DNA from: a virus
Lineage: Duplodnaviria > Caudoviricetes
Reading direction: 5' to 3' (one strand)
DNA length: 64,000 nucleotides
IMG/VR virus record: IMGVR_UViG_3300049740_002155
Shown here: in pieces, positions 48,218 to 61,701 of the stretch
How the letters are laid out: every line of letters starts with the position of its first letter
How positions within the stretch are numbered: position 1 is the first letter of the stretch
Program-made: the position numbers and the translations under genes
The notes under the pieces: generated by a model
Database searches by the model: none
What the model saw: only the letters and a program-made list of their open reading frames with translations
Told to the model about the DNA's origin: nothing

Positions 48218-48412
48218 ATGATTAAAGTAAAAGTAAGAGAAGGTGAACCTGTTGATCGGGCATTAAAACGACTTAAAAAGAAACTCAAAGACGAAGCAAT
48301 TCTTGATTCGGTGAGACAAAGAAGATACTTCGTACCGAAGTCCGAAAAACGCAAGAAGGCAAAGCAAAAAGCATATTACTCTCAGTTGATGCAAGAATAC
48401 AAAAATAGATAA
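48218..48412 (+). CDS. rpsU: Ribosomal protein bS21
   Basis: VKVREGEPVDRALKRLKKK...IL..VR.RRYF..SEKR. Confidence 0.9.
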   Translation: MIKVKVREGEPVDRALKRLKKKLKDEAILDSVRQRRYFVPKSEKRKKAKQKAYYSQLMQEYKNR

Positions 48413-48413
48413 A

Positions 48414-48665
48414 GTGCAGATTCAACACGAAATTACCGAGTCCGAACGAAATGCAGTTAAACGACATCTTGTGTCTTCTGATGACAGATTGTCTTTGAAT
48501 GTGATAAATAAAATGTTATCAAAGTACGAAATAACATTACAAAATAAGTTAACAGAAATAACTAATTTAAAAATGGACTTGGATGATCGTGATATTGCAG
48601 TAGATTTATTTTTCAGAAAAAAACTAAAGTCAGACGATGTAAAAAATCTAATTAAAACAAAATGA
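48414..48665 (+). CDS. Hypothetical protein
   Basis: GTG-start ORF after rpsU. Confidence 0.55.
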   Translation: MQIQHEITESERNAVKRHLVSSDDRLSLNVINKMLSKYEITLQNKLTEITNLKMDLDDRDIAVDLFFRKKLKSDDVKNLIKTK

Positions 48666-48961
48666 ATAAAAATACATACGCACACTCAATATTTGAAGAA
48701 TATTGTGATAAGGTTGAAATATTACCCGGAGAAGATTCAGTTGAAGTAATAGTACAAGGAAAATACTTTACTGAGTTATACACACGGGTTATGTTACACG
48801 GGTGGGCTTGTATATCAATTATGTCTGATGAAAAAGATAATCATACTGCAACTTTTGTTGATGGTGGTGCATTGGGATTTTTAGAACAAATGATGGGTGA
48901 AGACTTTATGAATGAGTTTCCCAATGAAGATGAAAATGATTGGTGGAAGAAGTCTGATTAG
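48662..48961 (+). CDS. Hypothetical protein
   Basis: 99 aa; ATGA overlap; the last base of its stop codon is the first base of tRNA-Ser. Confidence 0.65.
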   Translation: MNKNTYAHSIFEEYCDKVEILPGEDSVEVIVQGKYFTELYTRVMLHGWACISIMSDEKDNHTATFVDGGALGFLEQMMGEDFMNEFPNEDENDWWKKSD

Positions 48962-49050
48962 GAGGATTGGCTGAGTGGTTTAAGGTGGTGGTCTTGAAAA
49001 CCATTGAACTCTTACGGGTTCCGTAGGTTCGAATCCTACATCCTCCGCCA
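48961..49050 (+). tRNA. tRNA-Ser(UGA), CCA encoded
   Basis: Acceptor GGAGGAT/ATCCTCC-G-CCA, anticodon loop CT-TGA-AA, long variable arm, T arm GTAGG-TTCGAAT-CCTAC. Confidence 0.95.
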
Positions 49051-49083
49051 CTTATTTTATTAATTAACTAATATGTATAACTT

Positions 49084-49329
49084 ATGAAAACAGCAAAATA
49101 TTTTTCGGCATCATGGTGTGGTCCATGTAAAATGTTTAAACCAGTTGTAAACGAACTCATTGATGAAGGTCATAAAATTGAAATTCTTGATGTTGATGAT
49201 AATTTAGAACTTGCTCAACAATATCAAATACAAAGTGTTCCAACTATTGTAATAGAAGAAGACGGGCAGATCATTGATGGTGTAATTGGTGCAACCTCAA
49301 AAGAAGACCTTATTCAGAGATTATCCTAG
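49084..49329 (+). CDS. trxA: Thioredoxin
   Basis: FSASWCGPCK, IQSVPT. Confidence 0.9.
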   Translation: MKTAKYFSASWCGPCKMFKPVVNELIDEGHKIEILDVDDNLELAQQYQIQSVPTIVIEEDGQIIDGVIGATSKEDLIQRLS

Positions 49330-49739
49330 TGGGTGATGTCTTTAAAAAGTTATCATGTAACGCAGAGCAGGTAATCGTTGATAAAAAGTCTGACGATACC
49401 TTAGAAATTATTGTAGTTGATTCTGCGGGAGATACACATAATATAAATGTTGCAATTAAAACGGAAGCAACGCAGAATATAGATATTCTTGGTGACAAAC
49501 TTGAACAATATACAGATGTTTCTTCACTTGAGGTATCCCATGCAATAAAAAAGTCCGATAAGTATGATTCAAAGAATATTTCAATGAAGTGGAATCATGC
49601 AAGTAAACCATCGGTATATGAAATAAGAAATAAAGACAAAATTGTATTTACAGGAACGTTTTCTGATGCTATGATTTGGATTAATAACAACGTAAAAGAA
49701 TGCGATCAGAAAATTGTAACAAAGAAGTCCCTTCATTAG
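49329..49739 (+). CDS. Hypothetical protein
   Basis: GTG start coupled to the trx stop codon. Confidence 0.6.
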   Translation: MGDVFKKLSCNAEQVIVDKKSDDTLEIIVVDSAGDTHNINVAIKTEATQNIDILGDKLEQYTDVSSLEVSHAIKKSDKYDSKNISMKWNHASKPSVYEIRNKDKIVFTGTFSDAMIWINNNVKECDQKIVTKKSLH

Positions 49740-49978
49740 AAATCAGAGCAAGAGCAATCTTTTGTTGTATTTGGTTTGGAACGGTACCTTGGAGATTATA
49801 CGAAACAAAGAAACATTATCGTAGATCATATTTTCTGCATTTAAAATTAAATTGGGGATCTGCTTATGCGTGGTTAACCAATTATAAGGTAGATAAAGAA
49901 GATGTTGATTTTGAACGAGAAGTTAATCCATGTTGGTCATATGTATTTAATAGTATGTGTGCTGGACTAAGAAGATAG
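49700..49978 (+). CDS. Hypothetical protein
   Basis: 92-aa ORF; start uncertain. Confidence 0.45.
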   Translation: MRSENCNKEVPSLEIRARAIFCCIWFGTVPWRLYETKKHYRRSYFLHLKLNWGSAYAWLTNYKVDKEDVDFEREVNPCWSYVFNSMCAGLRR

Positions 49979-50015
49979 TTTGACTTTTTTCATAGATCCA
50001 ATACTATATATTTTT

Positions 50016-59941: not shown

Positions 59942-60016
59942 TTAGAATACTAAGACAAGAACAACTGCAACTGCGACTAACGCAACAATCTGCCATACTT
60001 TAACACCGTGTATCAT
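59942..60016 (-). CDS. 24-aa single-TM microprotein
   Basis: Own translation MIHGVKVWQIVALVAVAVVLVLVF; ATATTTAT (60022-60029, minus strand) 5 nt upstream. Confidence 0.55.
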   Translation of the reverse strand: MIHGVKVWQIVALVAVAVVLVLVF

Positions 60017-60054
60017 ATTACATAAATATAATATATACATTCCCAAGATGTAAT

Positions 60055-60062
60055 ATATTTAT
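60055..60062 (+). promoter_or_regulatory. ATATTTAT motif (candidate late promoter), divergent from the copy at 60022-60029
   Basis: 7 nt upstream of the Nudix ATG 60070. Confidence 0.5.
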
Positions 60063-60069
60063 TTAAAAG

Positions 60070-60531
60070 ATGAAATTAGTAGAAGCAATGAAAGAAATAG
60101 CAGAGCAATCGGCAGGAATTATCGTATACAGAAAAAATTCCGAGGGCATTCCTGAGTTTTTATTGCTTAACGGAGATGCAATTGGTTGGGGATTTCCCAA
60201 GGGTCATGTTGATAAAGGAGAAAATCTTATTCAAACTGCAAAGCGAGAAACTTACGAAGAAACTTCTCTTAAAATTTCAAAGTTAGAATCTGGATTCAAA
60301 CAAGAAGTTAAGTATTTTCTGAAGAAGAATTGGTCAACTGGTAAGCAATACAAAATACCCAAGTTAAAGATGGTGACTTATTTTCTTGCGGAAGTTCCTT
60401 ACGAATCAAATGTAAGAATTTCACACGAACATATTGGATTTCTTTGGTTGCCATATTCCAAGGCAAAAAAGAAGCAGTTGTTCAACAAGAAACTTCTCAA
60501 GTATGCAAAGGATTATATTTTGGCAAAGTGA
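60070..60531 (+). CDS. Nudix hydrolase (Ap4A hydrolase-like)
   Basis: SAGIIVYR, WGFPKGH, Nudix box GHVDKGENLIQTAKRETYEET, SHEH..W. Confidence 0.9.
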   Translation: MKLVEAMKEIAEQSAGIIVYRKNSEGIPEFLLLNGDAIGWGFPKGHVDKGENLIQTAKRETYEETSLKISKLESGFKQEVKYFLKKNWSTGKQYKIPKLKMVTYFLAEVPYESNVRISHEHIGFLWLPYSKAKKKQLFNKKLLKYAKDYILAK

Positions 60532-61104
60532 TTACTTCCCAAACTCGTAATTAAAATACTCAATGTCTTTTGCGTATTTTTCCGCAACAATTGAACGAGT
60601 TTCGTCATCATAGTATTCGGTGTATTGTTCATGCTGAGTTTTATTCCAGTGAGGTAATTCACATTCAGAAACTCCAACTTCGTTGCAAATAAAATCAAAA
60701 TCTTTTTGTAAATTTTCAAATTTTCCGATGAAATTTACATAATCGTGGTTTATGAGATTGTATTGTAAACGATGATGTCTATCGCAATTATTGAAATCGT
60801 CATTCTTAATTGCATGAACAAATTCCGTAAAAGAATGATTTTTGTATTTTACATAATCACGTAATTGCCATTTTGTTCCGATTGACATTTTCGTTTTGTC
60901 TAAAAAACAAGATACAAGTCTGTCCCACGGATTTCTAACAAACGCAAACTGAAAATATTTTCTATGTCCGTATAAATGCTTGGATTTTACAGTGGCCACC
61001 GAAAAGTCAGGATGTTTGCAAAAGAACATTTTCACAGAACTGCATCCAGTTTTTGGGACTTCATACCAAAAAAGTTTAAGTTGGGGACATTTGTACAGAA
61101 TCAT
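60532..61104 (-). CDS. Sulfotransferase family 2 protein
   Basis: VPKTGCSS PAPS-binding loop, FVRNPWDRLVS, FIGKFENL..DF; ATATTTAT 6 nt upstream on the minus strand. Confidence 0.85.
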   Translation of the reverse strand: MILYKCPQLKLFWYEVPKTGCSSVKMFFCKHPDFSVATVKSKHLYGHRKYFQFAFVRNPWDRLVSCFLDKTKMSIGTKWQLRDYVKYKNHSFTEFVHAIKNDDFNNCDRHHRLQYNLINHDYVNFIGKFENLQKDFDFICNEVGVSECELPHWNKTQHEQYTEYYDDETRSIVAEKYAKDIEYFNYEFGK

Positions 61105-61117
61105 TAAAAAATAAATA

Positions 61118-61146
61118 TTGACTTTTTATAATATTCATGCTAATAT
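61118..61146 (+). promoter_or_regulatory. sigma70-type promoter (def), leaderless
   Basis: TTGACT-17 nt-TAATAT, 6 nt to ATG 61153. Confidence 0.8.
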
Positions 61147-61152
61147 GCTAAT

Positions 61153-61701
61153 ATGAAAATCGTTAATTACGGACAAGAAATTTTAGAAACTCCGACTCAA
61201 AAGGTTACGGAGTTTAATGAAGACTTAGTAAAGTTTACCGAAGATATGATTTCCACGATGAAGTCAAGCAATGGAGTTGGATTGGCTGCTCCACAAGTCG
61301 GCGATAATCGTAGAATCTGTGTGATTGATTTGGGATTCACCGAAGGATTTGTTTATGATGGAGAAAAGGTTCTAACCGATGACTACTACCCCTTGGTTTT
61401 GATTAATCCCGAAATCAAAGTCGTATCAGAAGCAAAGTCTATTATGAATGAAGGATGTTTGAGTTTTCCTGGTGTAACTCTTGAAGTTAAACGTCCAAGT
61501 ATCATCAAACTTACTTTTCAAGATATTGAAGGAAACAATCGCATCGTAGAATGTGCCGGTGGTCTTGCTCGTTGCATTCAACACGAAGTTGATCATCTTG
61601 ATGGAGTTTTATTTAATCAACGAACCAAGAAAATTAAAAACAAGGATGCTAAATTAATCCGCAAAATCAAATCTGAAAATGCCAATCTTACATTACACTA
61701 A
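61153..61701 (+). CDS. def: Peptide deformylase
   Basis: GVGLAAPQVG, EGCLS, QHEVDHLDG. Confidence 0.96.
   Translation: MKIVNYGQEILETPTQKVTEFNEDLVKFTEDMISTMKSSNGVGLAAPQVGDNRRICVIDLGFTEGFVYDGEKVLTDDYYPLVLINPEIKVVSEAKSIMNEGCLSFPGVTLEVKRPSIIKLTFQDIEGNNRIVECAGGLARCIQHEVDHLDGVLFNQRTKKIKNKDAKLIRKIKSENANLTLH

Follow-up and report, generated by a model that had tools for sequence, protein, structure and literature searches.

Phage-encoded bS21, IF-3 and peptide deformylase (PDF) are each known singly. As a set, bS21, IF-3, PDF and tRNAs are already known from huge phages, for which the takeover of translation has been proposed before (Al-Shayeb et al. 2020, Nature, PMC7162821), and in one of the supplementary genome annotations (file 27, 'Salt_Pond' locus tags) IF-3 lies directly beside S21. 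In freshwater-Bacteroidetes phages, the gene for bS21 lies with those for structural proteins on the reverse strand and is expressed late, and the divergent part of the protein is its N-terminal helix (Chen et al. 2022, ISME Commun, PMC9723584). The bS21 of a pelagiphage is incorporated into ribosomes of E. coli (Mizuno et al. 2019, Nat Commun, PMC6375957), and in HTVC008M the gene comes from an alphaproteobacterial donor, with no IF-3 reported. Phage PDFs are represented by the solved enzymes of cyanophage S-SSM7 and Vibrio phage Vp16 (PDB 3UWA and 5MTC), both of which were detected from sequence.

Here we have analysed 64,000 nt of phage DNA (IMG/VR record IMGVR_UViG_3300049740_002155, the window in what follows) that carries these three protein genes and two tRNA genes. 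In contrast to the huge phages, the present lineage is marine and T4-like and its copies are closest to those of Opitutales, and its bS21 has no N-terminal extension. It shares with the freshwater-Bacteroidetes phages an aromatic residue at position 54 of bS21 and the resemblance of this protein to that of an SD-poor host group, but rpsU follows an early-type promoter, the host-like part of the protein is its N-terminal half, and IF-3 and PDF are encoded alongside. Like HTVC008M, it is a marine T4-like myovirus whose bS21 appears host-derived and is under purifying selection, although the putative donor is in this case Opitutales. Finally, its PDF has the same catalytic motifs as the S-SSM7 and Vp16 enzymes, but it is 182 aa long, keeps a Lys-rich C-terminal segment, has an insertion of ~11 residues after motif 1, and finds its nearest cellular relatives in Opitutales and not in cyanobacteria.

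The phage and its translation genes

The window is phage DNA, with 78 of its 83 called genes on one strand, a GC content of 0.34 and PHROG matches that include a DnaB-like helicase, RNR and a Dda-like helicase, and the phage is a large one of a marine T4-like (jumbo) lineage. The initial annotation had described a kit of five genes between positions 48218 and 61701; all five are present, but tRNA-Leu (42670..42756) lies outside this span, 5.5 kb upstream of its start. All three proteins are of full length, their catalytic and structural motifs are intact, and in Pfam they exceed the curated cut-offs by far. Their genes do not form an operon. They are scattered over 13.5 kb, interspersed with genes for nucleotide metabolism, helicases and methylases, and a separate strong promoter precedes both rpsU and def.

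The rpsU gene (48218..48412, + strand) encodes a bS21 of 64 aa that scores 55.7 bits against Ribosomal_S21 (PF01165, cut-off 27) over residues 3-54, can be aligned with the bS21 chains of solved ribosomes and falls within a phage-only clade of 49 proteins. Its sigma70-type promoter, TTGACA-N17-TAAAAT (48183..48211, +), matches 11 of 12 consensus positions, is among the top matches of the region scan and ends 6 nt before the ATG. This geometry is the same in relative L219 with a different sequence (TATAGT), whereas in the more distant L220 the gap is 25 nt. The order DUF2201_N, rpsU, thioredoxin is kept in all three relatives compared. Between rpsU and tRNA-Ser there are two small ORFs of 83 and 99 aa (48414..48961, +) that had no Pfam or PHROG match; ORFs of equal size follow bS21 in L219, L220 and L221 too, the region scan found no terminator-like site between them, and they are probably co-transcribed.

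The bS21 peptides quoted in the initial annotation were found in the translation, but the C-terminus that it called divergent is not so with respect to the likely donor or host lineage. In fact, the tail AYYSQLMQEYKN mirrors the AAF(T/N)xMLRxRYEN common to the order Opitutales and is of the Opitutales type, reading A-Y-Y-(S/A)-Q-L-M-Q-E-Y-K-N in the phage against A-A-F-(T/N/S)-x-M-L-R-x-R-Y-E-N. This motif includes an aromatic residue 12 positions past the KPS serine, and the position equivalent to phage Tyr54 is Phe in 28 of 28 sampled Opitutales bS21, while the tails of other phyla are basic and lack that aromatic residue. The Bacteroidia-type bS21 that sequesters the anti-SD combines an aromatic residue 54 with a less basic C-terminal domain and with matching residues in bS18 and bS6; the phage protein has Tyr54, but its tail, in which 8 of 22 residues are basic and 2 acidic, has stayed strongly basic. 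The linker between the two helices, conserved as KP(S/T), is permuted in the phage clade: it reads PKS in at least 90% of the members, and cellular proteins have KPS, KPT or KPC at that site.

The infC product (59401..59940, +; 179 aa) has the N- and C-terminal domains of IF-3 (IF3_N, 103.8 bits, residues 17-84; IF3_C, 94.7 bits, residues 92-175) with a Lys-rich linker, and aligns end to end with the solved E. coli and Thermus factors. In many bacteria, infC is autoregulated through an AUU-type start. The phage gene begins with ATG, with an in-frame TAA immediately upstream, and ATG starts are also found in four Opitutales infC, so that the start codon does not separate phage from donor. A hairpin with a 5-bp stem and a 7-nt loop (59369..59385, +) lies 15 nt upstream of the start and is followed by an A/C-rich stretch without SD. 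In most of the eight relatives, a differently sequenced hairpin ends 10-16 nt before the infC start, the clearest cases being the window, G006, L166, L168, L223 and L225. The gene order is conserved in seven of the eight: infC is preceded by dCMP deaminase and then a small minus-strand ORF, and is followed by NUDIX and then def.

With regard to the residues of E. coli IF-3 which we take to be implicated in 30S binding and fidelity (Y75, R131, R133, R147 and R168), their equivalents are kept in the phage protein: no variation is seen in A1 at Y77, R131, R133 or R167, and R147 falls on the R147 of E. coli in the alignment. R99 is replaced by His in the phage sub-clade, and R116 and R129 by Glu; Opitutales IF-3 also has Glu at position 116 and a residue other than Arg at 129. 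Other changes do set the phages apart. The near-universal C-terminal-domain residues K123, K125, T127 and H137 (95, 96, 82 and 96% of 79 cellular IF-3s) are replaced in the phage clade, which is monophyletic with a support of 100, by Q123, R125, A127 and Y137 in 95-100% of its 59 members.

The def gene (61153..61701, +) encodes a type 1B-like PDF that scores 161.1 bits against Pep_deformylase (PF01327), can be aligned with PDFs of solved structure, those of the cyanophage and the Vibrio phage among them, and has the three motifs G-x-G-x-A-A-x-Q, E-G-C-L-S and H-E-x-x-H intact, as GVGLAAPQ, EGCLS and HEVDH. Its sigma70-type promoter, TTGACT-N17-TAATAT (61118..61146, +), also ends 6 nt before the ATG, a geometry that is kept in G006, L168, L222 (-10 box TACCAT) and L223.

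ARAGORN found exactly two tRNAs in the window, tRNA-Leu with anticodon UAA (42670..42756, +), which reads UUA/UUG, and tRNA-Ser with anticodon UGA (48961..49050, +), which reads UCN. The codon usage of the phage fits both anticodons: TTA occurs 23 times per 1000 codons, against 2-10 in Opitutales chunks, and TCA 15 times, against 4-9. Compensation of codon usage by phage tRNA genes is known from T4 and many other phages, and the present pair resembles such cases in that A-ending codons are read, the phage is AT-rich and the likely hosts are richer in GC. Unlike the usual cases, the window has no more than two tRNAs, and close relatives differ in which of them they carry: tRNA-Leu is found in L219 and absent in L221 and G006, and tRNA-Ser has kept its place in L221 and G006 but is absent in L219 and L220.

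Affinity to Opitutales and selection

The positions of bS21, IF-3 and PDF are kept in eight related marine jumbo-phage contigs, and the three proteins belong to phage-only clades with 67-98% identity, from contigs of up to 350-570 kb, below which identity drops at once to 40-51% for cellular proteins. The genes are under purifying selection, with dN/dS values of 0.05-0.10 for rpsU, 0.11-0.20 for infC and 0.05-0.08 for def (0.05-0.20 overall), synonymous sites being near saturation.

In a panel of 46 genomes from many phyla, Opitutales gave the best scores for all three proteins; the panel was chosen by IF-3 similarity and is therefore not an unbiased sample. IF-3 is 50-51% identical to Opitutales; E values for bS21 are 5e-13 to 1e-11 in Opitutales and 4e-6 or worse in every non-PVC phylum sampled; and those for PDF are 7e-43 to 7e-35, against 5e-32 or worse. 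Furthermore, bS21 was matched at full length, with 33-53% identity, in 41 of 41 genomes drawn evenly from Opitutales. The IF-3 tree gave no settled sister group for the phage clade. From these similarities, rpsU, infC and def were apparently taken from Opitutales (Verrucomicrobia).

Initiation signals and recurrence of the trio

The phage is indeed SD-poor, as had been noted in the initial annotation: an SD core is found at -18 to -4 of 12% of its starts, compared to 39% in T4 under the same scoring (Fisher p = 1.3e-4). A few strong SDs are present, for example GGAGGG ahead of 18786 and AAGGAG ahead of both 20447 and 37072. The sigma70-type promoters of the window and G006 fall into two classes according to the distance between the end of the -10 box and the start, which is 6-7 nt in one (8 of 17 matches in the window and 7 of 16 in G006) and 42-47 nt in the other. 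In addition, late-type TATTTAT boxes lie 4-8 nt before six starts on the + strand. As to the leaderless or near-leaderless genes of the initial annotation, rpsU and def have a promoter-to-start geometry from which leaderless messages can be predicted, with read-through from upstream genes also possible; infC has its hairpin-capped leader instead.

The trio recurs in other phages. Of the 48 other IMG/VR contigs with IF-3, bS21 is present in 38, PDF in 38 and both in 33, and bS21 and PDF lie less than 1 kb apart in 20, counts for which there is no proper IF-3-negative baseline and in which many contigs are mutually related. In the literature searched, we found no statement that IF-3 co-occurs strongly with either bS21 or PDF, or that bS21 and PDF are adjacent. 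The connection that had been drawn between these genes and SD-poor or leaderless translation did not hold, since the SD-like fraction of the contigs that bear them ranges from 0 to 0.59 and the full trio is found together with T4-like values of 0.44-0.47 in L011, L022, L023, L035 and L071. This recurrence suggests that the trio is co-selected across lineages of very different SD usage.

Possible role during infection

The explanation that we favour, and consider rather probable, is that a marine T4-like jumbo lineage long ago took rpsU, infC and def from an Opitutales-like (Verrucomicrobiota) host lineage and has kept them, together with a variable tRNA pair, under strong purifying selection as a host-compatible supply. 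The proteins would serve as spare parts with which initiation and N-terminal processing would not become limiting after takeover: bS21 as a late-assembling, exchangeable small-subunit protein that, by analogy with the pelagiphage protein, could be incorporated into the 30S subunit; IF-3 as a sub-stoichiometric factor; and PDF as a low-abundance enzyme that would have to cope with many nascent chains made at once. The two tRNAs would read A-ending Leu and Ser codons, common in a 34%-GC phage and rare in candidate hosts of 48-59% GC. We infer that rpsU and def would be expressed from early, host-type promoters, with mRNAs beginning at or beside the AUG, and infC from a short, hairpin-capped, SD-less leader. 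A supply of initiation and processing capacity with codon compensation is the likeliest role of the set.

The initial annotation had proposed that altered phage bS21 and IF-3 on host ribosomes relax the discrimination against 5'-terminal starts, so that leaderless phage mRNAs outcompete those of the host. The low SD use, the promoters close to the start, the TATTTAT boxes, the PKS permutation and Tyr54 of bS21, and the clade-specific K123Q, K125R and H137Y of IF-3, next to the RGR loop of the C-terminal domain, would all fit with this idea, which we nevertheless consider unlikely. In E. coli, excess IF-3 has been published to inhibit leaderless translation, and ribosomes without uS2 and bS21 to favour it; both proteins hence disfavour leaderless mRNAs, and added host-like copies would do the opposite of what is proposed unless the phage proteins are altered. 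A functional change is possible given the substitutions in IF-3 (K123Q/K125R/T127A/H137Y) and bS21 (PKS and Tyr54) and the identity of only ~45-50% to the nearest cellular proteins. However, the bS21 tail is host-like, infC itself is leadered and the trio is also found in phages of T4-like SD usage. Moreover, SD-less initiation may need no re-tuning, because the likely donor lineage for the most part does without SDs, at any rate in rpsU and infC, most Opitutales copies of which lack one (25 of 30 in the case of rpsU). We found no evidence in the sequences for a re-tuning of ribosomes towards leaderless messages.

A combined version, in which an aromatic bS21 would hide the Opitutales anti-SD and the Tyr54 bS21 together with the K123/H137-altered IF-3 would favour 5'-terminal or SD-less phage starts, making the trio an initiation-reprogramming module and not spare parts, seems to us quite improbable. 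We give still less credit to anti-SD control by itself, according to which Opitutales ribosomes, like those of Bacteroidia, would sequester the 16S 3' tail through the aromatic bS21 residue, and the phage would supply a Tyr54 version that keeps or shifts the share of SD-blind ribosomes, balancing its SD-less majority against its few SD-led genes, such as those with the strong SDs mentioned above. To our knowledge, no Verrucomicrobial ribosome structure exists. The signature Tyr54 of F. johnsoniae bS21 stacks on A1534 (Jha 2020), and phage Tyr54 aligns with this chain without gaps; Tyr54 is also kept in Bacteroidetes-phage bS21 (Chen et al. 2022), Phe is found at this site throughout the sampled Opitutales with their mostly SD-less rpsU, and some Verrucomicrobia have been published as SD-scarce despite keeping CCUCC. 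Against it, the phage tail has remained strongly basic, and a search of five MAGs for a 16S gene yielded none. Finally, that the genes were acquired from a host only recently and have no function is hardly credible, for although they are of cellular type and scattered among unrelated phage genes, this is contradicted by their low dN/dS and conserved synteny, as well as by their deep phage-specific clades, the conserved promoters of rpsU and def, and their phage-like GC content and codon usage.

The present case has several implications. As three genes point to one donor order, they allow a hypothesis on the hosts of this uncultured group of phages, with Opitutales as candidate hosts by gene similarity. 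Among the contigs with IF-3, about four-fifths also encode bS21 and about four-fifths PDF, often adjacent to one another. The changes of the phage IF-3 at almost invariant positions are concrete targets for mutagenesis, and the aromatic residue at position 54 of Opitutales bS21, together with the lack of an SD before rpsU, is a hint of possible anti-SD sequestration outside Bacteroidia.

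Translation genes of the window and their conservation

The window, with a GC content of 0.34 and 78 of its 83 called genes on the + strand, is part of a large low-GC phage genome, and several of its genes have PHROG matches to replication and nucleotide-metabolism families. The initial annotation listed rpsU, infC, def and two tRNA genes, and all of them are present: bS21 (rpsU, 48218-48412, +), IF-3 with both of its domains (infC, 59401-59940, +) and peptide deformylase (PDF; def, 61153-61701, +) score far over the curated Pfam cut-offs, and ARAGORN places tRNA-Ser(UGA) at 48961-49050 (+) and tRNA-Leu(UAA) at 42670-42756 (+). 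The span proposed for this set, 48218-61701, contains four of these genes and leaves tRNA-Leu(UAA) outside. In PDF every one of the three catalytic motifs is intact, and the protein can be aligned with solved PDFs, two phage enzymes among them; IF-3 aligns end to end with the solved E. coli and Thermus proteins, and bS21 is alignable to solved bS21 chains. The three genes form no operon and lie scattered across 13.5 kb, interspersed with genes for a thioredoxin, a Dda-like helicase, a methylase-like protein, a Ro/TROVE-like RNA-binding protein, a dCMP deaminase, a NUDIX protein and a sulfotransferase.

All three proteins fall in phage-only clades from marine metagenomes, with identities of 67-98% for IF-3, 66-98% for bS21 and 73-95% for PDF and with some members on contigs of 350-570 kb; outside these clades, among cellular proteins, identity falls to 40-51%. 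Gene order is conserved around infC and def in seven of eight relatives and around rpsU in 3/3, and in an 80-kb IMG/VR relative (G006) rpsU lies ∼11 kb from infC, similar to the window. Pairwise dN/dS against three relatives, with synonymous sites close to saturation, was 0.05-0.10 for rpsU, 0.11-0.20 for infC and 0.05-0.08 for def. The three are functional, long-resident phage genes. A megablast search of the region against the INPHARED phages gave no match, and an IMG/VR scan with a single protein returned one relative only.

Two further genes of this region are retained in all relatives. A 515-aa protein encoded between rpsU and infC (56318-57865, +) matches DUF2828, DUF7788 and phrog_850 'RNA-binding protein' (E 3.5e-143), and looks like a Ro60/TROVE-plus-vWA-type protein. 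The other, a minus-strand ORF of 96 aa (58933-59223) that is divergent from infC, had no match in Pfam or PHROG; a TATTTAT late-type box lies a few nt ahead of its ATG. In the gap that separates infC from the NUDIX gene, a possible 24-codon hydrophobic mini-ORF can also be read by eye on the minus strand (∼59946-60017).

Promoters and leaders

The promoters of rpsU (TTGACA-N17-TAAAAT) and def (TTGACT-N17-TAATAT) each end 6 nt before the ATG, and as the N-termini of both proteins align with homologues, these start codons are secure. The 6-nt geometry outlasts sequence change in related marine jumbo-phage contigs, the -10 box being TATAGT for rpsU in L219 and TACCAT for def in L222; in a more distant relative, a 25-nt A-rich gap precedes rpsU. 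When strong promoter-like sites up to 80 nt from a start were counted, the gap measured 6-7 nt in 8/17 sites and 42-47 nt in 5/17 in the window, the corresponding counts in G006 being 7/16 and 5/16. Several promoter-like sites with a 30-46 nt gap precede a Shine-Dalgarno (SD) sequence. T4 gave no match to the promoter pattern and serves as a control for SD only, not for geometry. From rpsU through a pair of small conserved ORFs to tRNA-Ser, no terminator-like site was seen between the genes. Ahead of rpsU, a 75-nt stretch (48143-48217) that takes in the promoter and the end of a DUF2201_N gene shows no difference between the window, G006 and the related contig L221, and 55% of synonymous sites differ in the rpsU coding sequence itself; this suggests that the stretch is either very strongly constrained or adjoins a boundary of recombination.

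The leader of infC is of another kind. Upstream of infC are a 160-nt divergent intergenic region and a hairpin (59369-59385), and in most of eight relatives (G006, L166, L168 and L222-L225 compared) a hairpin of varying sequence ends 10-16 nt before the infC start, leaving an A/C-rich, G-poor stretch that lacks an SD. This hairpin may serve to stabilise the 5' end or to regulate the phage IF-3. The proposal of leaderless or near-leaderless genes fits the promoter geometry of rpsU and def, which would apparently be early, leaderless genes, and does not extend to infC. The genes between infC and def, for a NUDIX protein and, on the minus strand, a sulfotransferase, each have a TATTTAT late-type box 6-7 nt ahead of the start (60055-60062, +, and 61111-61117, -, respectively), and from these boxes neighbouring genes seem to differ in temporal class.

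Probable donor and host lineage

When one genome per prokaryotic species was scanned, the highest IF-3 identities (50-51%) were found in Opitutales and in the marine 'Verrucomicrobia TMED40' MAG. In a panel made up of the genomes behind 46 IF-3 matches, which spans many phyla and was selected by IF-3 similarity, the four top bS21 matches were from Opitutales or TMED40 (E 5e-13 to 1e-11); other PVC bacteria came next, and E values were 4e-6 or worse in all non-PVC phyla. The four top PDF matches lay in these four genomes again (7e-43 to 7e-35, the rest 5e-32 or worse). Furthermore, 41/41 genomes sampled evenly across Opitutales had a match to phage bS21 that covered almost the whole protein (33-53% identity). 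A representative search with bS21 gave only weak matches outside the phage clade. In the IF-3 tree the phage sequences form a monophyletic clade with a long stem (support 100), within a weakly supported group that includes PVC/Opitutales, a second viral clade and a single Dehalococcoidia sequence, a placement that is compatible with an Opitutales origin and is no proof of it. Donor and host were probably Opitutales-like bacteria, as judged from gene similarity in a panel that was itself chosen by IF-3 similarity.

The bS21 tail, AYYSQLMQEYKN(R), is common to the phage clade. It had been described as divergent, and turns out to be host-like: it mirrors the pattern AAF(T/N)xMLRxRYEN found throughout the order Opitutales, the tails of other phyla sampled being plain basic. 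The universal KPS linker of bS21 is PKS in the phage, a phage-specific permutation, and position 54 is Tyr in the phage and Phe in 28/28 sampled Opitutales. Tyr54 is a signature of Bacteroidia bS21, where it stacks on A1534 and helps conceal the anti-SD (Jha 2020), and Bacteroidetes-phage bS21 proteins retain it (Chen 2022, PMC9723584). A Bacteroidota host, suggested by this residue, was rejected on two grounds: the promoters are of the TTGACA/TATAAT type, and Opitutales give the best scores for all three genes.

In Opitutales, rpsU lacks an SD in 25 of 30 genomes (L189 and L227-L255), with a clear SD in almost all other phyla sampled, and infC has an ATG start and no SD in four genomes. Given Phe54 and the SD-less rpsU, anti-SD sequestration may extend past Bacteroidia; a published survey found some Verrucomicrobia to be SD-scarce yet to retain CCUCC. 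The few Opitutales rpsU genes with a strong GGAGGTGA include several from the smallest assemblies sampled (∼0.8-0.9 Mb) and one from an assembly of ∼2 Mb. Host SD usage was judged from rpsU and infC, whose N-termini are secure, and from the literature; genome-wide counts in Opitutales chunks were powerless and were set aside because both schemes failed their positive controls (alphaproteobacteria 14% vs 11%; odds ratios 1.35-1.4, n.s.). Neither rpmI/rplT beside infC in Verrucomicrobial loci nor 16S rRNA in five Verrucomicrobial MAGs was found.

Co-occurrence across viruses and probable role of the genes

A set of 48 other IF-3-encoding contigs from IMG/VR, 65-511 kb long and many of them mutually related, covers several IF-3 clades; bS21 was present in 38, PDF in 38 and both in 33. 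In 20 contigs (G052, G057-G060, G062, G063, G067-G069, G071, G072, G076, G078, G082, G088, G090, G091, G093 and G094) PDF follows bS21 at a distance of <1 kb, and in another 10 the distance between the two is 4-5.5 kb. As a rough baseline, S21 is named in ∼18% and deformylase in ∼17% of the genomes in the portion of the Al-Shayeb 2020 (PMC7162821) files available to us. Because co-occurrence exceeds this baseline, we infer that the three genes are co-selected among these partly related contigs; our literature search found no paper stating this.

The window is SD-poor, as the initial annotation held (SD-like fraction 0.12 vs 0.39 in T4). The three genes do not follow SD-poor or leaderless architecture: over loci of this type the fraction ranges from 0 to 0.59 (median 0.29), that is, from none at all to T4-like, and contigs carrying all three reach 0.44-0.47.

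The best-supported reading is that host-derived bS21, IF-3 and PDF would serve as spare parts to keep initiation and N-terminal processing going, with the tRNAs compensating phage codon usage. TTA and TCA are used 23 and 15 times per 1000 codons in the phage and 2-10 and 4-9 times in the two Verrucomicrobial genomes sampled, and both tRNAs are gained or lost between close relatives, which fits ordinary codon compensation. It is unlikely that altered phage bS21 and IF-3 instead shift ribosomes toward leaderless mRNAs. Clade-specific changes do occur in both proteins: the phage IF-3 clade (n=59) has Q123, R125, A127 and Y137, flanking the RGR loop, where 82-96% of cellular sequences (n=79) have K, K, T and H. 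Residues that correspond to E. coli Y75, R131, R133, R147 and R168 are retained in the phage IF-3, and the acidic C-terminal tail seen in Opitutales IF-3 is missing. However, the comparative data lend this idea no support, and it runs contrary to what is known in E. coli, where raised IF-3 inhibits translation of leaderless mRNAs; leaderless translation there is favoured by ribosomes without uS2 and bS21. A phage set of translation genes such as this belongs to a kind of system known already (Al-Shayeb 2020; Mizuno 2019, PMC6375957; Chen 2022), and what is new here is the donor lineage, probably Opitutales-like, for phage translation genes.
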